This document shows positions 9,492 to 64,000 of a stretch of DNA of 64,000 bases, piece by piece. The notes beneath the pieces are model-generated. The model had not been told where the DNA came from and did no database searches. It saw only the letters and a program-made list of their open reading frames with translations. Source of the DNA: Alphaproteobacteria bacterium (GTDB taxonomy: Bacteria; Pseudomonadota; Alphaproteobacteria; CACZRW01); NCBI GenBank assembly GCA_017507765.1, contig JAFWAG010000021.1, positions 5,903 through 69,902 of the forward strand, given 5' to 3'. The position numbers were made by a program, and so were the translations under genes. How positions within the stretch are numbered: the stretch's first letter is position 1; every line of letters begins with the position of its first letter.

Positions 9492-13851
<4,360 letters not shown>

Positions 13852-20805: not shown

Positions 20806-22661
20806 ATGTTTTCGGAAAAAATTAAACTTTCTACCCCCCCCCGCTAGGAAATTGCGCCGCCGCCGGTAGTATTACGGTTGAAGCGATTATAGTTTTAGGG
20901 CTTATAGCCGCCTTAACACCGGTACTTTATAAGCATGTATCTGACCGTCGTCAGGATATAGACAACATCAACGAAGCGAATCGTTTTCTTTTATTAAAGA
21001 AGGCGGCATCGGAGTATATTAGCAACCACCGCCACAGTTTAAGCGTTGGTAATACCGTTCTTGAGCCTGACGATATAGGGTTAGAGCTTACGGGTTATCA
21101 AATAGGCATCAGGAAAGAATCGGACGGGACGATAAATGCGATGATTGCCGCTACTTCTGGCGGCAATGATTTAAAAGCGGCGAAGGTTGCTTCATTATTG
21201 GGCGTTTCTGCGGGGATATATTCGGCTCAGGATAGCAGTAAAGCATGGGGTATCAAGGGAGTTTGGGCAGAGAACATAGCGAACTATGGTTTTACGAGTT
21301 TGCCGACTGGCATTACGGTTTTGACGACTGCATATAAGGAAGAAACCACCGGCGGGATTAACGAAGAACAGTTAAAAGAAATCATTGAGAGCACGTCTTA
21401 TGACACGTTAACGACCAAGAAGTTTTGCCTAGACAATCCGAATATACCGGAAGATGAACGGTGCGTAGAAGATTGGGATTTAGCCGTCATCAATCCGGTT
21501 GAGATTATTGACGGCTGTAATTCCGGCACGCAAAGTGCGTGTCAGAAGGGTTGGGAAAAGAATATCAATCGCAGTTGTGAGCAGATATCCCAAAGATATA
21601 AAAAGATAGGCTTTGCCGCCACTTCGGGGATATACAAAATCACCACCGGCGCAACTACCCAAGTTGAGAAAGCCTGTTACTTTGTGAATGGAGACCTCCC
21701 AACTAATGCTCAGTTAATCGAAGCGGCAAAAAGTAATGACATCGCTCGCAGATACGACTGGGAAAATAATAAGATTACGGCAAGCTGTACTTCTATCATC
21801 ACGAACTGGAACTCTGCCCCAAGCGGACTTTATACTCATGTAAGCGGAACAAGTACTTACAGTGGGTCTCAGCCATGCTTGTTTGTGGGCAGCCGACTTG
21901 CCAACAATAACGAGACTATCACGCAGTGTAACAGCGGAGGCGGAAGCAGTGTTGCTTGCCGCTACGGCTGGAAGTTTGATGTTAATCGTTCCTGCGCAAG
22001 GGTGATTGCCACATGGACGAGCGCACCGACAGGTTGGTATCAGATTACAACTTCTTCATCATCGAGTTCCGCCCCGTGTGTCTTTACGGGTAACCGTGTT
22101 GCCACCGCCGCAGAAGTCGTTGCTCAATGCAATTGGTCAACCACCAGCAGTGCCATGGCGAGCAGCGTCCAATGCCGTTACGGCTACCTCAAAGGCTATA
22201 ACACCAGTTGTACTAATGTCATCAACAACTACGCCGCCGGCAAAGGCATAGAAAACAGCATCGTATCTGCTAGTGGCGGCTGGCGCGAATGCTGCGATTG
22301 TTGTAAGACTTGTGCAAACATAGGTACAGTAAGCGGAGGCGAATGCAAGAATGTAAATGGTTGTGCTTGGGTACGGTCTACGTCAACTAAGAATTATTGG
22401 GATTCACAGACGTTCTGCAGTAATTTAGGCATGGAGTTAAAGTCCAAATCTCAATTACAAGCTGCCGGATTATGGAATATAGGTTCAAATCCGTTCAGCG
22501 TACCTAGATGGCATTGGACCACGGATGTTTGGAGTGGCAACTCAAGTTGGGGAGCCCACGTTTGGCTCGGTAATAGCAGTGTTAGCCATTGCCCGAGAAG
22601 CAATGCAGGTTGGTACGAGGGCTACCAGATCAACATCTACGCATTGTGTGGGCTAAAGTAG
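20806..22661 (+). CDS. prepilin-leader, Cys-rich-repeat, lectin-like surface protein; frameshifted at a poly-C tract (phase-OFF as sequenced)
   Basis: ATG 20806 reads MFSEKIKLSTPPR and then stops at TAG 20845. The adjacent frame is open from 20826 to 22661 and encodes ..AAAG|SITVEAIIVLGLIAALTPVLYKHV.., co-linear with the 611-aa paralogue at 59321. One extra C would restore a 618-codon ORF. The ORF track reports only the 506-aa part from internal Met 21141. Confidence 0.8.
20834..20842 (+). repeat. C9 homopolymeric tract (candidate slipped-strand mispairing site)
   Basis: Nine consecutive C counted directly at 20834-20842, inside the leader-peptide codons. It sets the reading-frame relationship between ATG 20806 and the long downstream ORF. 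Confidence 0.9.
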
Positions 22662-27226: not shown

Positions 27227-28255
27227 GTGTTACCGATAATCATTTTTGGAGCTTCTTTAATAGGTTCGATTTTTTGGTTAGCAGGAAGCGCCGTTTATAT
27301 AGAATCTCGCATAGGTTGGGAAAATCTGGTTACCATGAATCCCTCTGACATAGCCTTTTTTATTACGGCAATTCTTCTTCCTATTGTTGTTTTATGGATT
27401 ATTATCGGCTTTATTCATTATACGGGCATAATTCGTCGCCAAGGTTACTTTTTAACCGCCATGCTTGACCAATTAAAGCGCACTTCCGGTCAGAATGAAG
27501 TCATTTTAAAGAATCTTATCACCGGTCAAGAGCAAAATAAAAACAACGATATGCTCAAATATATTGATATAGAACTTGCCGATTTGAATAACGTCATTGC
27601 CGAAATAGCCGTTCGCTTTGGCATTATGCGCAAAACCTCTGAAGATGCTTTATGGGAAAGAGTTGGGCAAGGAAACCGTTGGGCATTCTGCCAAGTTATT
27701 TTGGAAAATGCCGAAGAAACCGAAGACTTTAGCAAAGCATTAAAAAAACGTATGGCGAGAGATGAAAAGTTAACAAAAGCGGTTAATCTTTTCCTTTCCC
27801 GTTTTGAAAAAGTCCTGCAAATGCTAAGTTCTACAGACTTTAACCGTCCGTTTATCGAAACTTTGGAAAACTGCAACTTAGGGGCTTTGTATTCCCTTTT
27901 GGCAAATATTGAAAACTTTGCTCCCCCCAAGGCTGACAATGAAGAAACAGCCATACCGGAAGATGAAATATCCTCAAACCAACCGGAAGAATCTTCTTTC
28001 CAAAAGGCTTTGTTTAATTCTCCGGAAACGGTTTCTTCTAACCCCGAAGAAAGCATAGACTTTTCTCCGATATTTGACGAAGAAGAAATTGTAACCATAG
28101 AAATAACCAACCAAAAAGAAAACGCCGCCACCACTGCGATAGATTCTGACTGGGAAGCCAGAAAAAAGGAAATCTTGGCCAAATACAGCAAAAAAGAACC
28201 CGAAGACGATTTAAACGCTCCGGCTTTCTTAAAAAATACAGATTGGAACAGCTGA
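27227..28255 (+). CDS. hypothetical membrane protein with an acidic C-terminal region
   Basis: 342 aa with a GTG start. Two N-terminal TM helices (IIIFGASLIGSIFWLAGSAVYI and FFITAILLPIVVLWIIIGFIHY) and an E/D/S-rich tail. Ends 3 nt before yejA. The 279-aa antisense ORF was rejected. Confidence 0.55.
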   Translation: MLPIIIFGASLIGSIFWLAGSAVYIESRIGWENLVTMNPSDIAFFITAILLPIVVLWIIIGFIHYTGIIRRQGYFLTAMLDQLKRTSGQNEVILKNLITGQEQNKNNDMLKYIDIELADLNNVIAEIAVRFGIMRKTSEDALWERVGQGNRWAFCQVILENAEETEDFSKALKKRMARDEKLTKAVNLFLSRFEKVLQMLSSTDFNRPFIETLENCNLGALYSLLANIENFAPPKADNEETAIPEDEISSNQPEESSFQKALFNSPETVSSNPEESIDFSPIFDEEEIVTIEITNQKENAATTAIDSDWEARKKEILAKYSKKEPEDDLNAPAFLKNTDWNS

Positions 28256-37822: not shown

Positions 37823-37996
37823 TTCATCTCCTCCGAAGTGATACTTCCTTAATTTTAACCCAAGCTTTTGAATATTGCCACCTAATTTTTCGCAAAAGCA
37901 GAAAAATCTTCTATCGGGTTCATCATTTAATTGCCTTCTTTGTGGTAAATCTTTAAAGTGAAAGAGGTTGGCAGTTATAATCAGACGGGGAAGCTT

Positions 37997-38740
37997 ATGG
38001 AAACAGCCAAAAAGAAAGTACTTATCGACTCCGGTAGCGACATAGAAAGCTGTGTAGCGATTCTTATGGCATTAGCTTCACCCGAAATCGAAGTTGTTGG
38101 CATAACCTCTGCCACAGATGAAGACTTTCCCGTACTGAAAGAGTTATGTTTACTGGCAGAAAAAAGGCATATACCTCTTTATAAACCGGAAAAAGCTCCC
38201 GACTTTATCAAACTGGCTATGGAAGATTTCTCAGGCAGTTTGTATATAGCTTCCTTAAGCGATTGCCGGAATATCTATCAAGTGTTAAACGATATTCCGC
38301 CAGAGAAAATACAAATCAAACAGTTGTTTGTGACTGAAAAATATATTGCAGATTCGCTGAAAGCTTCCCTTCTGTATAAAATAGATAAATTAACTCTGAT
38401 TTCTTCTGACTTGGCAGAAGTTATAAGAATCACCCTCCATGATTTAGTAATTATGGAAGCCCTACACACCAAATCCGCCACTTACATTTCCGAGCAAATA
38501 AAAGAAAAACTTGCAAATAATCCGGAAAATTATTTAGTGCTTTACAATCCCATAGCAGTTGCCTGTATTCTTAGACCGGCTTTGTTCGGGGGCATATTCG
38601 GAAGCGCCTCTTTTTACGGAGGAATAGCCAAAGAAGAAAGCTTTGCTACGGAAGAACAAAACAACATTTTATGTATAAACGAAGTAAATATTGATGCATT
38701 TTTTGCCTTATTGAATGAACGGTTGGCAATGCTGCCATAG
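37997..38740 (+). CDS. inosine-uridine nucleoside hydrolase-like protein with a degenerate active site
   Basis: The ORF is open from 37958; METAKKKVLIDSGSDIESCVAILMALASPEIEVVGITSA starts at ATG 37997. It is co-linear with RihA-type hydrolases ([31 protein letters not shown] ... LHDP), but the DxDxxxDD and HD residues are replaced. Confidence 0.6.
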   Translation: METAKKKVLIDSGSDIESCVAILMALASPEIEVVGITSATDEDFPVLKELCLLAEKRHIPLYKPEKAPDFIKLAMEDFSGSLYIASLSDCRNIYQVLNDIPPEKIQIKQLFVTEKYIADSLKASLLYKIDKLTLISSDLAEVIRITLHDLVIMEALHTKSATYISEQIKEKLANNPENYLVLYNPIAVACILRPALFGGIFGSASFYGGIAKEESFATEEQNNILCINEVNIDAFFALLNERLAMLP

Positions 38741-53141: not shown

Positions 53142-54299
53142 ATGTTTATATTTTTATTACTTGCCATAGCCACTCTCGGCCCCATGACTTTAAATATGTT
53201 TTTGCCGGCTCTGCCTGTGATACAAGCGGATTTTGCGGCACCGTACAGCGTCTTACAGCTTTCCTTAAGCCTTGGGATTATCACCTTTGCCATAGGCACT
53301 TTCTTTAACGGCTTTTTATCGGACAGAATCGGCAGAAAGCCTACGATGATTTTAGGTTTATGGCTTCACATAATCGGCAATGTCATCTGTATTTTTTCGC
53401 CGAATATCTGGTGGTTTATTTTTGGCCGCATAGTCATGAGCTATGGCGGAGCCGGACTGGCCGTAGTTATCCGTGCCAGTATAAGCGACATTTACGGACC
53501 AAAAAAATCCACGGTTATTTATGCATGGCTTGCAATTACCATGGTTTTTGCGCCTATGATAGCCCCCTCTGTAGGCGGTTATATTGCCGAGTTTTTCAAC
53601 TGGAGGGTAATTTTCCTTGTCTTAACAGCTGTTGGCTTGCTTGCCGTCGGAGCAACCATTATCGGCATTCCGGAAACCCGCCCAAAGTTTAGAAACAAAG
53701 TATCTCCGGCAAAAGATTTCCTTTTAGTGTTAAAGAGTAAGGAATGGTGGATTTATGCTTTTCTTTGCGGTTTTGTTTCCTCGGAATCTTTTGCCTTTGT
53801 TTCCGGTATGCCATACATCGCCGAAACCATTTTACATATGACCCCCGGTCAATACGGCTCATGGCTGATGCTTGCGGCGTCCGGATACCTTTTCGGAAAC
53901 CTTATCAGCACCAGATTGGCTAATATCAAAAGCACCTTTTTCATGACCTTTACCGGAGCTTTAATATCTTCTGTCGGCGCCGGCATAATGCTTTGGTGTT
54001 ACCTTACGGATTTAAAGGATTATTACCTAATTTTCTTTGCAATGTCGGTCATAAACCTAGGCACCGGAGTAACGCTTCCCAGTAGCATTTCCGCCTCAAT
54101 CAACCTTGCCGGAGTTCCCCGTGGAGCAAGCGCAGCCATGCAGGGACTCGTTCAAAGCTTAATTCCTGCCGCAGTTGTGCAGTATATAGGAAGTGCTTAT
54201 GACGGCACCGCTTTTGTAACCTTTGCCTGTATCATAAGTATTACGTTTCTGACCGTCATCTTATCCTTAGCGGGCAAGACTCTTACTTCCCGCCGGTGA
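53142..54299 (+). CDS. MFS transporter (Bcr/CflA-like drug:H+ antiporter family)
   Basis: 385 aa with about 12 TM helices. Has GPMTLNMFLPALPVIQADF and the MFS motif A-like LSDRIGRKPTMILGL. Confidence 0.8.
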   Translation: MFIFLLLAIATLGPMTLNMFLPALPVIQADFAAPYSVLQLSLSLGIITFAIGTFFNGFLSDRIGRKPTMILGLWLHIIGNVICIFSPNIWWFIFGRIVMSYGGAGLAVVIRASISDIYGPKKSTVIYAWLAITMVFAPMIAPSVGGYIAEFFNWRVIFLVLTAVGLLAVGATIIGIPETRPKFRNKVSPAKDFLLVLKSKEWWIYAFLCGFVSSESFAFVSGMPYIAETILHMTPGQYGSWLMLAASGYLFGNLISTRLANIKSTFFMTFTGALISSVGAGIMLWCYLTDLKDYYLIFFAMSVINLGTGVTLPSSISASINLAGVPRGASAAMQGLVQSLIPAAVVQYIGSAYDGTAFVTFACIISITFLTVILSLAGKTLTSRR

Positions 54300-54722
54300 A
54301 ACCGTAAAGGATACTTCCGTTCCGCTGGTATCTCCGTCCAGCTGAATCGTAGCGACTCTGTTGCCATGCTTAAAGGTAAGCACGCTCATCTGGGAACGAA
54401 CCACGGTAATTTCCTGCCATCCGAACTTAGGCATTTCCGCCATATAGAAATCGAACAAACCGCCCTGACTGTACGGAGCATTAAAGACGATTCGCCCGCT
54501 CCAAGAGTTCTGACCGCCGAATACCAAAGTCCTTTTTAAGTCCATAACGGCCTGTTCCGGTATGGGAATATCGTTAAACTGGGCGAAATTAGGCGGAATA
54601 GCCTTTGCTTCTCCGGTAACATCGTCCGTGTTCTTAGATGAAGACATAAGCGGCGCACCGTTTGTGCAGGCGACCAAAGATGTTGTAATCATTAAAGAAA
54701 ACAAAAAAACTGCTATTTTCAT
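54267..54722 (-). CDS. hypothetical lipoprotein
   Basis: 151 aa with a signal peptide and lipobox (MKIAVFLFSLMITTSLVAC). Its 3' end overlaps the convergent MFS gene by 33 nt. Confidence 0.6.
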   Translation of the reverse strand: MKIAVFLFSLMITTSLVACTNGAPLMSSSKNTDDVTGEAKAIPPNFAQFNDIPIPEQAVMDLKRTLVFGGQNSWSGRIVFNAPYSQGGLFDFYMAEMPKFGWQEITVVRSQMSVLTFKHGNRVATIQLDGDTSGTEVSFTVSPAGSKSLAR

Positions 54723-59064: not shown

Positions 59065-59109
59065 AGATAACTCCTGCTTTACATTTATAATTGCATCTTC
59101 TAAAGTAAT

Positions 59110-59143: not shown

Positions 59144-59320
59144 GAAGTCTCTTAATAACCAAAGGTTCCATCTTGGATAGACCTCTCCTTGCTTTGTGTC
59201 TGGGAGACAGAGTTATGTCCAGATGCCAAAGCATTAAAAACTTTGTACCGAGTTATTACGGTCTTCTAACTCCCAGGCAAGTGTAGCGCAAAGCCTTGAT
59301 TCTTTATTGGGAGAAAGCAG

Positions 59321-61156
59321 ATGAACCGTACTCAAAAAGGCAGCATTTCCGTTGAAGCAATTGTTATGTTAGGGATTATAGCTTCCCTGACGCCCATACT
59401 TTATAAGCACGTTGCCGACCGCCGCGAAGATATGGATAATATAACCGAAGCAAACACTCTGCTTTTGTTAAAGAACGCCGCCGCAGAATATATCGAAGCG
59501 AACAAAGACACCTTAAGCGTAGGTACAGTTCTTTTTGAGCCAACCGACATCGGTATAGACATATCCGGCTATCAAATCGGGATAAAGAAGGAAGTAAACG
59601 GCACCATAAACGCCATGATAGCCTCCACAAGCGGCAATAATGATATGAAAGCGGCAAAGGTTGCTTCGTTACTTGGCGTATCAGCGGGAATATATTCGGC
59701 ACAGGATAGTAGCAAAGCATGGGGTATCAACGGTATCTGGGCAGAAAATATCTCAAGCTATGGCTTTACGTCTCTGCCGACCGGCGTTCCGGTTGTAACC
59801 ACGGCTTACGACAAAGAAGAAAGCTTTGGAATTAATGAAGAAGAATTAAAAAACATTCTGGAAAATACAAGCTATGATTCTTTAACGGCGAAAAAGCTTT
59901 GTATTGATAATCCGGAAATACCGGAAGATGAAAGATGCATCGAAGATTGGAACATTATCGGCATCAATCCGTTGGAAATTATTGCTGGCTGTAATTCCGG
60001 CATTCAATCTGCCTGTGAAAAAGGCTGGTTAAAAAATATCAATCGTTCCTGCTTGGAAATATCCATAAAGTATAAAGGAGCCGGCTTTATGGCTCCTTCG
60101 GACATATACAAGCTGACGACTTCCCGTAATACCCAAGTTGAAAGAGCCTGCTACTTCGTAAACGGGGAACTTCCAACTAACGAGCAGTTAATTGAAGCCG
60201 TAAAAACCGATGCTATAGCCCGCCGCTATGATTGGGAAAACCATAAAATATCTGCTTCCTGTCAAAACATAATCACAAACTGGCCGGAAGCTACAACGGA
60301 CTTTTATACTCTTGTAACCGGCATTTCCACCTACCAAGCGAACCAACCATGCGTATTTACCGGAAGCAGAGTAGCCACAAACGGAGAAGTCATAACCCAA
60401 TGCAACAGCGCAATAGGAACCGGAGCCGCTTGCCGTTATGGGTGGATTAACAACCTTAATCGTTCATGTGAAAGAGTAATTGCGTCTAACACTTCTGCCC
60501 CTTCCGGCTATTACAATATCACGACGTCCTCCGGAGCAAGCAGCCAGCCCTGTTTCTTTGTAAACCACAGAGTTGCAACCGGACAAGAAACCATAGTTGC
60601 CTGCAATGCTTCCACTACAAGCGCAGCTATGAATAGCAATATTTCCTGCCGTTTTGGGTATGTAAGAGAATATAACAACAACTGCGCAAACATACTTGGA
60701 AACTATCCTGCCGGTATCGAACAAACGCACAGCATAACCACCTCAAATGGCGGAACCCGCAAATTATGTTTAATGTCCTGCGAGGTAATAGGCTCTGTTA
60801 CCGACGGAGAATGCAAAGATGTTAACGGCTGGGGCTGGGTACGGACAAGCACTGCGCTTAACTATTGGGATTCCATAGACTTTTGCAATGCTTTAAATAT
60901 GGCATTAAAGACACCGGCACAATTACAAAGCGACGGCTTATGGAATCCCGGATACAGTAACCCGTTTGCAAATTATTGGGTATGGACAACAAATACTTGC
61001 ACTTGCGGACAATGGAGTAGCACCTTTAGTAACGATTGCGGCTGTCAAGCCTATCTTGGAACCGGAGTTTTAGGCTGGAACCACAGAGAATCCGTATATG
61101 ACGGAGATTGGACAGTCAGTTACGGCTGGGTATACGCCCTCTGCGGCCCGAAGTAG
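59321..61156 (+). CDS. prepilin-leader, Cys-rich-repeat, lectin-like surface protein (intact paralogue)
   Basis: 611 aa. The leader MNRTQKG|SISVEAIVMLGIIASLTPILY has Glu at +5 and about 21 hydrophobic residues, as in type IV pilin / Tad pseudopilin class III signals. There are 24 Cys in total. Four ~67-aa 4-Cys modules span aa 224-497. The C-terminal ~110 aa carry W..s..FC..L...L....QL and a terminal YALCG. Confidence 0.8.
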   Translation: MNRTQKGSISVEAIVMLGIIASLTPILYKHVADRREDMDNITEANTLLLLKNAAAEYIEANKDTLSVGTVLFEPTDIGIDISGYQIGIKKEVNGTINAMIASTSGNNDMKAAKVASLLGVSAGIYSAQDSSKAWGINGIWAENISSYGFTSLPTGVPVVTTAYDKEESFGINEEELKNILENTSYDSLTAKKLCIDNPEIPEDERCIEDWNIIGINPLEIIAGCNSGIQSACEKGWLKNINRSCLEISIKYKGAGFMAPSDIYKLTTSRNTQVERACYFVNGELPTNEQLIEAVKTDAIARRYDWENHKISASCQNIITNWPEATTDFYTLVTGISTYQANQPCVFTGSRVATNGEVITQCNSAIGTGAACRYGWINNLNRSCERVIASNTSAPSGYYNITTSSGASSQPCFFVNHRVATGQETIVACNASTTSAAMNSNISCRFGYVREYNNNCANILGNYPAGIEQTHSITTSNGGTRKLCLMSCEVIGSVTDGECKDVNGWGWVRTSTALNYWDSIDFCNALNMALKTPAQLQSDGLWNPGYSNPFANYWVWTTNTCTCGQWSSTFSNDCGCQAYLGTGVLGWNHRESVYDGDWTVSYGWVYALCGPK

Positions 61157-63187: not shown

Positions 63188-63880
63188 TTATTTTGAATCC
63201 AATATACGCATAGAGTTATCAAGGATATTTTCAAAGGAAAAGCCGTAATTATTTTCTAAATCCTTACTGATTTTACCGATAGCCTCAAGGATTGGAGAAG
63301 AATTAGCATCTCCGCCCTTTTGAATCCACCGTGTAGACTGCAGCAAAGCCAAGCGGGTCTTTTCCGGAGCCGTACGGATAGCTTCGTCCAAGGAATCCGG
63401 CACGATATAACCAAGCTTCCGCAAATGCTCTGTCATCAAAAGCATATTGGTTTTATTGATTTCCGGAGCAATCATTTCTTGTCCCATTGCGGTGTTATAG
63501 GTAGTGTTTTGACCTACGAACTGCGGCAACGGAGTATCCCGCAAAGGAACGTCCTGTTGAAGTGCATCAGCCACAGCCTGAACTTGCGCTTGAGACTGAG
63601 CCGCCCAAGGATTTGCAGGCAAAGCCGCTTGCTGAGTTTGCTGGGTTTGCACCTGTTGTTGAGCTTGCGCCGCTGTAACTGCACTTTGCGCCATAGCCTG
63701 CACCGGAACATATATTGTATGCATCTGCTGTGCACCGGTAGCCGGATCAAGTGTAGCGATAGTTAAGGGATAATATGCCGCCTGTTGCCCTTGCGCTTGC
63801 TGAGCCAAAGCATTACCCGACACTCCGACGGCGACAGCAACCGACATAATTCCCACATACTTTGCAAAAGTTTTCATCAT
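63188..63880 (-). CDS. hypothetical secreted Q/A-rich protein
   Basis: The ORF is open from 63931. Met at 63880 gives the signal peptide MMKTFAKYVGIMSVAVAVGVSGNALA. The next ~110 aa are Q/A-rich low complexity, followed by a ~110-aa globular C-terminus. No family recognised. Confidence 0.5.
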   Translation of the reverse strand: MMKTFAKYVGIMSVAVAVGVSGNALAQQAQGQQAAYYPLTIATLDPATGAQQMHTIYVPVQAMAQSAVTAAQAQQQVQTQQTQQAALPANPWAAQSQAQVQAVADALQQDVPLRDTPLPQFVGQNTTYNTAMGQEMIAPEINKTNMLLMTEHLRKLGYIVPDSLDEAIRTAPEKTRLALLQSTRWIQKGGDANSSPILEAIGKISKDLENNYGFSFENILDNSMRILDSK

Positions 63881-64000
63881 ATTGCCCAAACTCCAAAAAC
63901 TTACCAATGCTGATACTTTAGCACGTTTCATCGGACAATAAAAGTTACAAAGTTATGAAAAAAACACACCCACCCTTTCTTCCTATAAGAACAAAAGTTT

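Follow-up and report, generated by a model that had tools for sequence, protein, structure and literature searches.

A putative PilV-like pilin adhesin and its multicopy gene family in an uncultured gut alphaproteobacterium

Results

Layout of the locus

The window, by which we mean the whole 64-kb stretch of DNA analysed, is housekeeping chromosome: its Pfam scan returns LpxC, BamD, AsmA, MipZ, FlgE, Mfd, TopA and others. Between a phosphoglucomutase gene and a small basic ORF, the forward strand carries an ORF (59321-61156, +) that encodes 611 amino acids with 24 cysteines and begins with MNRTQKGSISVEAIVMLGIIASLTPILYKHV; re-translation agrees with both figures given in the initial annotation. 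A Shine-Dalgarno sequence, GGGAG, lies at 59309-59313 (+), and a conserved structured 5'-UTR RNA at 59197-59280 (+). On the 5' side of this RNA, a consensus scan located a promoter-like site, TTTACA-17-TAAAGT, at 59078-59106 (+), which is weakly supported, since the count of such sites across the region is about that expected from shuffled sequence.

The product has a modular architecture, with all parts encoded on the forward strand. The leader peptide MNRTQKG (59321-59341), delimited by translation and by the conservation of G7, forms the basic stretch of a class III-type signal with Gly as its last residue. It is followed by a pilin-like carrier module (residues 8-165; 59342-59815), recognised from the AF2 model, the family alignment A2 and a chain of homology to PilV. 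A linker with the single Cys pair C194/C206 (residues 166-216; 59816-59968), modelled by AF2 at low confidence (pLDDT 54-70), leads to four tandem alpha/beta modules (residues 217-485; 59969-60775; AF2 pLDDT >90). The protein ends in a C-type-lectin-like domain found by Foldseek (residues 486-611; 60776-61156 with the stop codon).

A pilin-type signal and predicted pilin-like fold

The layout around the presumed processing site, MNRTQKG/SISVE (the slash marks the site), combines a short positive leader, a terminal Gly and Glu at +5. In alignment A2, G7 (-1) and E12 (+5) are at least 90% conserved and T24, P25, L27 and Y28 are invariant, whereas the leader varies in length and sequence. The pattern [KR]-G/S-x3-E is present in 270 of the 312 superfamily proteins, preceded by leaders 7 to 59 residues long. 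The putative mature N-terminus displays Ser+1, Glu+5 and a hydrophobic alpha1N with Gly+11 and Pro+18. According to AF2, the alpha1 helix spans 53 residues (8-60) and is followed by the 5-6 strands of a small beta-sheet head (pLDDT ~85); the carrier domain modelled alone reaches a pTM of 0.73.

Canonical signatures do not recognise this region. The PS00409 pattern matches 0 of the 312 superfamily proteins, and R64 PilV fails it too. Neither N_methyl nor TadE gives a Pfam or NCBIfam match in the two window proteins or in 23 N-domains (E up to 1 or 10), and the same holds for TadE (PF07811) and the TadG-like N-terminal model (PF13400) searched at E up to 1, and with the 23 N-domains at E up to 10. 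The class III signal of the initial annotation stands in its short basic leader, Gly(-1), Glu(+5) and long alpha1, but is not matched by the canonical N-methylation models.

Structural comparison of the N-domain with the PDB returned no solved pilin among its Foldseek matches. The sole credible match is PilM of R64-type T4b systems (3eoi; E 0.009, prob 0.99, TM 0.59), and the PDB sequence set contains no PilV structure. Despite the Foldseek match, hhalign found nothing to make R64 PilM a sequence relative of the N-domain, nor does R64 PilM resemble the small TM protein encoded 5' of the ~1000-aa relatives. Searches of the N-domain against PDB sequences gave leads at most (Geobacter PilA-N, E 1.2; a ribosomal protein, E 0.23), and sub-threshold matches to ComGE, GGGWT_bact, SubB and mTOR_dom were judged uninformative or due to chance.

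Homology of the carrier to the PilV constant region

Profile comparison indicates remote homology between the N-domain and the PilV constant region (Pfam Shufflon_N, PF04917), traced through an intermediate profile. The family profile A2 aligns with A4, built from a distant set of ~1000-aa relatives, at an hhalign probability of 99.9% (E 6e-32), and A4 in turn aligns with R64 PilV over 183 columns (96.9%, E 1.8e-10). Shufflon_N is matched by 5 of 52 distant members, and sequence P0114 scores 39.4 bits against it (gathering cut-off 27.5). Compared directly, A2 and PilV align in register with 28% identity at a weak E of 0.064, so the link between carrier and PilV depends on the intermediate profile. 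Direct matches of N-domains to Shufflon_N number 3 of 23, all below threshold (best E 0.0038), and neither window protein matches the model in a Pfam search.

The product of 59321-61156 retains only about the first 165 of the ~345 residues of the PilV constant region, for which the Shufflon_N model has ~324 positions. A segment of the form LYR...N.M.T.L.MG.N, present in PilV and in the ~1000-aa relatives, is missing from the window protein. Searching the PDB with A4 yielded only a phage tail fibre, matched through the beta-helical middle region and uninformative on the N-domain.

Cysteine modules and the lectin-like tip

Four tandem modules were indeed found where four 4-Cys modules had been claimed, but only three of them carry the full motif (224-279, 361-413 and 428-485). 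The remaining one (~287-344) has an equal predicted fold with only 2 Cys. In the AF2 model the modules share a recurring helix-helix-helix-hairpin pattern. A Pfam Xlink match at 336-386 (25.1 bits, cut-off 27) was judged uninformative or due to chance.

The lectin-like nature of the C-terminal end is borne out by Foldseek. The best PDB match of the tip is the tip domain of Bdellovibrio Bd2740 (8oks; E 0.02, prob 1.0; 12% identity), a trimeric protein with a Ca-independent C-type lectin fold (PMC10769870), and further matches of the CTLD fold include NKR-P1A, MGL, DC-SIGNR, CD94 and viral C-type lectins. The E-values are weak because the query was the whole 611-aa model. The Ca-dependent sugar-binding motifs EPN, QPD and WND are absent from residues 486-611, and Bd2740 likewise has no Ca site. 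Lectin_C and DUF1566 have no Pfam match in either window protein; together with TadE, these were the models named in the initial annotation, and none of them found a match.

A second copy with a poly-C tract in its leader

The related gene reported at about 20.8-22.7 kb is present and encodes a product 60% identical to that of 59321-61156 over 609 aa, but the interval 20806-22661 (+) is not an open frame. Its ATG at 20806 stands in a different frame from the 611-codon protein frame (20826-22661), owing to a run of nine C in the leader-coding region (20834-20842, +), and the copy as assembled is phase-OFF. A tract of 10 or 7 C would restore a leader reading MFSEKIKLSTPPPLGNCAAAG/SITVE. No other G/C homopolymer in the 64-kb window reaches a length of 7. 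The longest ORF called mechanically here is 21141-22661 (506 aa), and the product is 100% identical to the NCBI MAG protein IKD08_01980, which is annotated from an internal Met.

The carrier module of this second copy, paralogue 2, starts at its Gly codon (20865-21344, +) and shows 72.5% identity in tblastn to the first gene's N-domain. Identity between the two copies falls along the protein, from 72% in the N-domain through 67% in the linker and 61% in the Cys modules to 44% in the C-terminal domain, which puts figures on the gradient from N-domain to tip previously judged by eye. In the frame read here paralogue 2 has 26 Cys, a set different from that of the first copy.

A tract of 7-9 C occupies an equal position in seven other family genes from independent assemblies, all of them out of frame, so that every tract-bearing gene seen as DNA (8/8) is OFF. 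The tract-bearing genes are 45-77% identical and come from at least six independent assemblies. ON alleles have 10 C (L049) or 11 C (L050). Allele L050 is 98.7% identical to L008, an OFF allele with 9 C, and the sole indel between them is the tract. Polymorphism of tract length with a consequence for the reading frame is directly visible in this pair of family relatives.

A structured leader RNA before the short-leader copies

The RNA at 59197-59280 forms a predicted three-helix junction composed of P1 (UGGGAG/CUCCCA), P2 and a P3 hairpin (CCG..CGG). It stands 5' of each of the six close-clade genes with a short leader and at no other place in ~660 kb. RNAalifold finds compensatory changes in 7 of the 20 pairs among the close-clade leader RNAs. 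Of the cells in this alignment 95% can pair, a share that drops to 32-45% once the partners are slid. The model R1 built for this element also locates it 5' of five distant-clade genes, and the compensatory pairs then rise to 14 of 20. These pairing patterns demonstrate that the predicted structure is conserved. No Rfam family matches the RNA; the one candidate, sRNA-Xcc1 (21.8 bits; gathering score 53), was not reproduced in the other loci and was rejected.

The Shine-Dalgarno GGGAG is identical to the 5' strand of P1 and complementary to its 3' strand. When the 5' strand of P1 is removed computationally, CUCCCAG pairs with the Shine-Dalgarno sequence in all six close-clade leaders.

Family size and distribution

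Where two paralogues had been reported, the MAG contains at least 15 genes of this family, comprising 14 IKD08_ locus tags and 59321-61156, with C-terminal parts swapped among family members. Searching 1.8 billion representative sequences with the A2 profile delineates a superfamily of 515 clusters at 50% identity, 216 of them at E <=1e-10. All named members belong to uncultured gut or rumen alphaproteobacterial MAGs, and all homologues are annotated as hypothetical. No Pfam or NCBIfam model reaches its threshold on either window protein. The earlier view that this is not a described family holds for annotation, where no model applies and every homologue is hypothetical, but not for the kind of protein: modular pilins (PMC8179133) and PilV adhesins (PMC9045228) have been described. 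The literature searched yielded no paper linking RF32, Alphaproteobacteria and a pilus.

Search for display machinery

The 64-kb window contains no T4P, T2SS or Tad gene, whether for a prepilin peptidase, assembly ATPase, platform protein, secretin or major pilin, in agreement with the earlier remark that no pilus machinery lies nearby. None of these components turned up in ~600 kb of flanking sequence from more than 50 family genes either, which brings the DNA covered around family members to ~670 kb. A phmmer comparison of E. coli GspC-O and R64 PilL-V with all ORFs of the family loci gave no match. Scanning these loci for other pilin-like ORFs with a G-x4-E regular expression produced only noise, and a motif scan detected no Flp-like small pilin near any family gene. 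The window also has no recombinase or pil gene (no Rci, no sfx cassettes), and its Pfam scan reveals no reverse transcriptase, the enzyme that diversification of the lectin tip by a diversity-generating retroelement would require.

Discussion

A probable modular pilin acting as adhesin

We think it probable that the product of 59321-61156 is a modular minor pilin, PilV-like and of type IV (type IVb-related), with the role of an adhesin. The core proposal of the initial annotation, a large adhesin of the minor-pilin type whose assembly end is conserved and whose binding end varies, and which would depend on a machine encoded elsewhere, is supported by the G(-1)/E(+5) site, the alpha1 helix, the homology to PilV and the lectin fold. 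A prepilin peptidase would remove the basic leader MNRTQKG by cutting after Gly7, and the mature N-terminus (Ser+1, Glu+5 and alpha1N) together with the small head would serve as a carrier that docks into a type IV filament, probably at its tip. The machine that builds the filament would be encoded elsewhere in the genome. Exposed on the cell surface, the carrier would present a stalk of four disulfide-stabilised modules capped by a Ca-independent C-type-lectin-like domain, which may bind a glycan or protein of the host or of other microbes. The genes of the family, at least 15 in the genome, share a common carrier and differ in stalks and tips, and expression would be set for each gene separately. 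Copies with a long leader, paralogue 2 among them, would switch by slipped-strand changes in the poly-C tract within the part that codes for the cleaved leader, whereas in short-leader copies such as 59321-61156 the leader RNA might free or sequester the ribosome-binding site in response to a signal that it senses.

Alternative explanations

The helix might act as an uncleaved signal anchor that keeps the protein fixed in the inner membrane, with the Cys-rich part in the periplasm or envelope and no filament involved. Such an arrangement would agree with the lack of pilus machinery near any of the more than 50 family genes, as well as with the missing canonical HMM and PROSITE prepilin matches and the lack of a solved pilin in the Foldseek results. 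We nevertheless regard it as unlikely, because it leaves unexplained why Gly(-1) and Glu(+5) are conserved behind leaders of 7-59 residues, and because PilV, to which the carrier is related by homology, is itself a processed pilin. Moreover, tips of lectin type, exchange of C-terminal parts and phase variation between ON and OFF typify exposed surface proteins and not periplasmic ones. Processing of the CpaA/TadV or GspO type is another option, in which case the protein would serve a Tad (type IVc) pilus or T2SS-like pseudopilus, as pseudopilin or tip subunit, instead of a PilV-type T4b pilus. TadE/TadF-type sites are compatible with the G/SxxxE layout, Alphaproteobacteria commonly carry Tad loci, and the searches around family genes revealed no machine of another type. 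The profile-level homology, however, points to PilV; the searches with 23 N-domains at E up to 10 bring up Shufflon_N and ComGE and not TadE or TadG; and no family gene has a Flp-like small pilin beside it, which leaves this option with a low probability.

Paralogue 2 could also be a decaying pseudogene or an assembly error, and the family merely a set of diverged duplicates. Some sequencing chemistries err at homopolymers, and none of the eight tract-bearing genes available as DNA is in frame. The sequence past the tract, however, stays open to give 611 codons and is 60% identical to the intact copy; genes only 45-77% identical carry the tract at an equal position in six or more independent assemblies; in-frame alleles with 10 C and 11 C exist; and the only indel separating the 98.7%-identical alleles L050 and L008 falls within the tract. 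Decay or error is accordingly very improbable.

Comparison with known systems

Among the closest known systems is PilV, the minor pilin and tip adhesin of the IncI1/IncI2 plasmids (R64, TP114) and of the PAPI-1 type IVb 'thin' pili. Like the family, PilV has a short basic leader with a Gly end and Glu+5, and the R64 leader MKKYDRG/WASLE is equal in layout to MNRTQKG/SISVE. In both, a conserved N-terminal pilin constant region bears variable C-terminal adhesin parts. In PilV the variable C-termini are adhesins that set recipient specificity (PMC9045228), and these ends are reported to determine what is bound (PMC9045228; PMC5297154). The window protein differs from PilV in that its constant region is reduced to the first half and its tip is made of Cys modules and a C-type lectin fold. 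Its gene lies outside any pil operon and is not plasmid-borne, and the family varies by means of at least 15 separate chromosomal genes and phase variation, with no shufflon in the window.

Modular type IV pilins are exemplified by Streptococcus sanguinis PilB (vWA) and PilC (lectin); a census lists more than 1,200 such proteins, which are widespread and in which lectin-type modules are common additions (PMC8179133). As in the predicted layout of 59321-61156, a pilin module, a linker and adhesion modules follow one another and are expected at the filament tip. Modular pilins are, however, defined by the IPR012902 N-terminal motif, to which the family has no match, and the domain combination of this multi-copy, phase-variable family is annotated by no model. 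CofB and TcpB (PMC8179133; PMC5207764) are reportedly also large type IVb minor pilins located at the tip with extra C-terminal domains. Unlike the family, they are encoded by single-copy genes inside pilus operons, and they show no sequence or Foldseek match to it.

The switch resembles that of Neisseria, where a homopolymer of ~9 or more in the 5' coding region likewise turns an adhesin or pilus-associated gene ON or OFF by frameshift. Jonsson et al. 1991 reportedly placed the pilC tract within the part coding for the signal peptide. The phase-variable loci of Neisseria include pilC, with a poly-G/C tract in the reading frame, and opa, with CTTCT repeats (PMC5953494). There is no homology between the two systems: PilC/PilY1 is no pilin, whereas the tract of the family encodes Pro residues in a leader of class III type, which under our model would be removed by cleavage. 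The Bdellovibrio MAT fibre adhesins (Bd2740; PMC10769870) share with the family the many paralogues with a conserved base and diversified tips, but they are trimeric and lack a pilin module, and the likeness (12% identity) is at the level of the fold only.

Implications

The lack of linkage between any family gene and pilus genes raises the possibility that an unconventional display route serves the pilin module. Combining all observations, one might picture a chromosomal 'gene-family shufflon': at least 15 PilV-like carrier-plus-tip adhesins in the ~1,300-gene genome of uncultured gut or rumen Alphaproteobacteria, each gene gated by poly-C slippage or by a new riboswitch-like RNA with one core and two expression platforms, and the pilin module perhaps displayed by an unconventional or undescribed route. 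Taken as a whole, this combination is speculative and rather improbable. If the modular-pilin model favoured above is right, the family would constitute a third route to pilus-tip adhesin diversity, in addition to the shufflon of plasmids and pilin recombination of the Neisseria type: many chromosomal genes share one pilin carrier, and each is switched individually, either stochastically or through RNA. Although current annotation misses the family altogether, it makes up ~1% of the genes in a gut bacterium with a small genome. In practical terms, the defined carrier domain could become a new profile model, the tips are candidate glycan-binding domains from an uncultured gut lineage, and the leader RNA, well supported by covariation, is a candidate for a new cis-regulatory RNA.

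Family size and arrangement

The query gene (59321-61156, forward strand) is an ORF of 611 codons with an ATG start and a Shine-Dalgarno sequence, GGGAG, 7 nt upstream on the same strand. Re-reading confirmed the 611-aa product with 24 Cys and the N-terminus MNRTQKGSISVEAIVMLGIIASLTPILYKHV. The second copy in the window, paralogue 2 at ~20.8-22.7 kb, is 60% identical over 609 residues, as estimated by the initial annotation, and identity decreases along the protein in the manner described there: 72% in the N-domain, 67% in the linker, 61% in the Cys modules and 44% in the C-terminal domain. The family is nevertheless larger than the two paralogues proposed. Relatives of the query protein were sought among 5.8 billion proteins, and 83 were recovered, none with a protein name. 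They include 14 different IKD08_ locus tags; adding the query gene gives a minimum of 15 paralogues for a single MAG. The highest-numbered tag observed is 06640, which corresponds to roughly 1,300 genes if tags are assumed to step by 5.

The conserved part of the family comprises the first ~165 residues, and all downstream parts are swapped between members: Cys modules with a lectin-like end, Cys modules with Gly-rich 'GGGGYxGG' domains, or Cys/Ser/Thr-rich tails. Gly-rich ends replace the lectin-like domain in P0012, P0023-P0034 and P0064-P0083. The C-terminus of PilV, the type IVb minor-pilin adhesin of the IncI plasmid R64, is likewise Gly-rich (L051 29791-31215, minus strand; GGNGGSAGG...).

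Only two GTDB species representatives contain the family, the Alphaproteobacteria MAG E30__bin2 and the rumen MAG RUG12900 ('uncultured proteobacterium'), and another 38 metagenome loci hold a clade 43-46% identical. This restriction to uncultured gut and rumen Alphaproteobacteria is new. Family genes are single and lie amid housekeeping genes. In L001 and L007, syntenic loci of two species, the family gene is found at the same position (10001-12148 and 9983-11908), and the flagellar, Mur ligase and Ddl genes around it are shared. On some contigs two family genes are found within 3-10 kb of each other (tandem in L010, 10007 and 12869; L001, 9974 and 19526; L005, 328 on the minus strand and 9751), and these close pairs suggest that the repertoire grew in part by local duplication.

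Relationship of the N-domain to PilV

The N-domain alignment, used as a profile in an exhaustive search, found 515 clusters, 216 of them at E 1e-10 or better. The distant members are proteins of 900-1300 aa in three parts: the same leader and helix (...QKG/SMMVEALAMLGLITMVTPILYKKAAERT..., the slash marking the putative cleavage site), a beta-helical middle and a conserved C-terminal domain. Those with a named organism all derive from uncultured Alphaproteobacteria MAGs. One distant member, P0114, matches Shufflon_N, the Pfam model of the PilV constant region, with 39.4 bits (cut-off 27.5); this model is matched by 5 of 52 distant members and is the top family among them. In profile-profile comparison, the family N-domain profile aligns with the distant ~1000-aa relatives at 99.9% (E 6e-32), and the latter with R64 PilV at 96.9% (E 1.8e-10, 183 columns). 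The direct comparison of the N-domain with PilV is weak (E 0.064), but places 42-159 against 42-180 in register, with 28% identity. This chain of matches leads us to regard the N-domain as a minor-pilin module of the PilV type, shortened and divergent, which differs from PilV in lacking the second half of the constant region. The R64 PilV N-terminus, MKKYDRG/WASLE, has the same layout as the family leader. Such a carrier, a putative shortened PilV module that escapes every current model, is new.

The sister group of 900-1300-aa PilV-like proteins (P0111-P0212; L052 1675-4299; L053 10001-13108) comes from the same kind of MAGs, and its genes also lie amid housekeeping genes. The middle part is tail-fibre-like and beta-helical, and the conserved C-terminal domain (YDAYQVNPAYTSVM.DIKL.TRGGARLSDILPDF...) is unannotated. 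Directly upstream of the ~1000-aa gene, both loci examined encode a protein of ~210-230 aa (L053 9305-9985; L052 1037-1657) with a TM helix at the extreme N-terminus and no Pfam match; it is laid out like R64 PilM, without detected sequence similarity to PilM.

The class III signal assigned to the query protein is retained in part. In the family alignment Gly(-1) and Glu(+5) are at least 90% conserved and T24, P25, L27 and Y28 are invariant; the leaders preceding the Gly are wholly different sequences. Leaders range from 7 to 59 residues among 312 superfamily proteins, 270 of which contain [KR]-G/S-x3-E. The standard descriptions of this signal fail, however: the N_methyl, TadE and T2SS pseudopilin models do not match the N-domain, and the PROSITE pattern PS00409 matches none of the 312 proteins. 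AlphaFold2 predicts the full-length query protein with pLDDT 85 and the N-domain alone with pLDDT 84.8 and pTM 0.73. The predicted N-domain consists of one helix, residues 8 to 60, on a small beta-sheet, and in the model its outline shows the pilin 'lollipop' shape. Foldseek of the N-domain found no solved pilin; the sole credible match is 3eoi, a 'putative PilM' of an R64-type type IVb pilus system.

Putative stalk modules and lectin-like tip

Residues 217-485 are predicted to form four helix-helix-helix-hairpin modules (AlphaFold2, pLDDT >90). Four 4-Cys modules had been proposed; three are complete (224-279, 361-413 and 428-485), whereas the fourth has the same predicted fold with only two Cys. 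Apart from a sub-threshold Link-domain match, residues 217-485 match no known model, and among the 5.8 billion proteins the modules are present only in the query's family. The C-terminal end, residues 486-611, does resemble C-type-lectin folds in Foldseek: the tip domain of Bd2740, a Bdellovibrio fibre adhesin, ranks first (prob 1.0), ahead of mammalian and viral C-type lectins. At the tip of its surface fibre, Bd2740 folds as a C-type lectin that is trimeric and calcium-independent (PMC10769870). The query protein has no EPN/QPD or WND motifs, so that if it binds sugar at all, it would not do so in the classical Ca-dependent way. The combination of stalk and tip is new and undescribed, as had been claimed, but its kind is known: PilV adhesins join a constant pilin part to variable binding ends (PMC9045228), and modular pilins are widespread (PMC8179133).

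Proposed function and machinery

The query protein is best read as a PilV-like minor pilin of modular build. Cleavage would follow Gly7, the carrier module would insert the protein into a type IV filament, and the disulfide-rich stalk would present the lectin-like tip. The genome would hold a repertoire of such adhesins, each with an individual switch. Diversity would differ in source from that of the PilV shufflon, deriving instead from a large chromosomal gene family; no recombinase is found in the 64-kb window.

The machine is the weak point of this reading. The gene content of the window is that of an ordinary Gram-negative alphaproteobacterial chromosome (AsmA, LpxC, BamD, RecN, LigA, ThrRS, Mfd, AccA, an Opp-type ABC system, IleRS, DprA, TopA, RNase R, FlgE, MipZ, UDP-glucose dehydrogenase and phosphoglucomutase) and, as already noticed, includes no T4P, T2SS or Tad genes. 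Neither the window nor ~600 kb flanking >50 family genes contains a peptidase, ATPase, platform protein, secretin or major pilin. Such an absence is compatible with genes dispersed away from one pilus locus but is no evidence that there is one. Two rivals are less likely. The protein could be an uncleaved membrane anchor, or it could be used by a Tad or T2SS-type system and not T4b. Other window genes without a Pfam match are the ORFs 27227-28255, 37958-38740 and 54267-54722, and 63188-63931 (minus strand), which encodes a secreted-looking 247-aa protein with a Gln/Ala-rich region.

Poly-C tracts and leader RNAs

Paralogue 2 had been placed at 20806-22661, but the frame is not open from the ATG at 20806. 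The protein frame (20826-22661, forward strand) is separated from this ATG by a run of nine C at 20834-20842, the sole G/C homopolymer of at least 7 in the 64 kb. With ten or seven C the product would be in frame, MFSEKIKLSTPPPLGNCAAAG/SITVEAII.... The truncated ORF of 506 aa is 100% identical to the NCBI protein IKD08_01980, which places the window in the IKD08 MAG or a genome almost identical to it. A rival reading that concerns paralogue 2 only, and is unlikely, is a pseudogene or an assembly error. We inspected 45 family 5' ends and found a tract of 7-9 C in eight, inside the leader-coding region and 22-45 nt before the Gly codon (besides the window, L001 ~9943, L002 ~9944, L003, L005 on the minus strand, L008 and L024 among them). 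All eight tract-bearing genes, seen as DNA, are out of frame. In-frame alleles have 10 C (L049) and 11 C (L050), and L050 is 98.7% identical to L008, from a different sample, with 11 C against 9 C as the sole indel. Eighteen database proteins start at an internal Met within the hydrophobic helix ('MLGLIA...', 'MVEVIVML...'), which is the gene-caller product expected from OFF alleles. The tract encodes Pro residues of the leader; provided that this leader is removed by cleavage, in-frame length changes would spare the mature protein. The arrangement resembles that of Neisseria pilC, which phase-varies through a homopolymer (PMC5953494).

Short-leader genes, including the query gene, have no poly-C tract and instead a conserved upstream leader RNA of three helices (59197-59280, forward strand, in the window). 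Copies are located at window 59197-59313, L055 9877-9958, L001 19420-19491, L004 6816-6894, L005 9624-9708, L007 9875-9945, L018 9758-9837, L027 720-799, L029 3451-3534, L019 5476-5560 and L014 6245-6327. At the syntenic position, the long leader of L001 has a poly-C tract and L007 combines a short leader and the RNA motif; one kind of 5' control region thus appears exchangeable for the other. The proposed per-gene expression control by poly-C slippage or structured leader RNA is a new feature.

The RNA matches no Rfam family, nor does any Rfam family occur in the 64-kb window. Its covariation is strong. Across the six close-clade copies, compensatory changes occur in 7 of 20 pairs, and paired cells reach 95%, against 32-45% with partners slid. 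A covariance model built from these copies locates the element upstream of five distant-clade genes, where the P1 sequence differs; compensatory pairs then rise to 14 of 20 in an alignment that was fitted to the model. A sequence further downstream mimics the 5' strand of P1 and can pair with the 3' strand in its place; folding without the P1 5' strand yields exactly these alternative helices. By analogy, the leader RNA looks like a riboswitch with one conserved core and two kinds of expression platform. In close-clade copies the Shine-Dalgarno sequence itself is the mimic; distant-clade copies have a terminator-like segment instead, with a U-run after it at three of the five loci.
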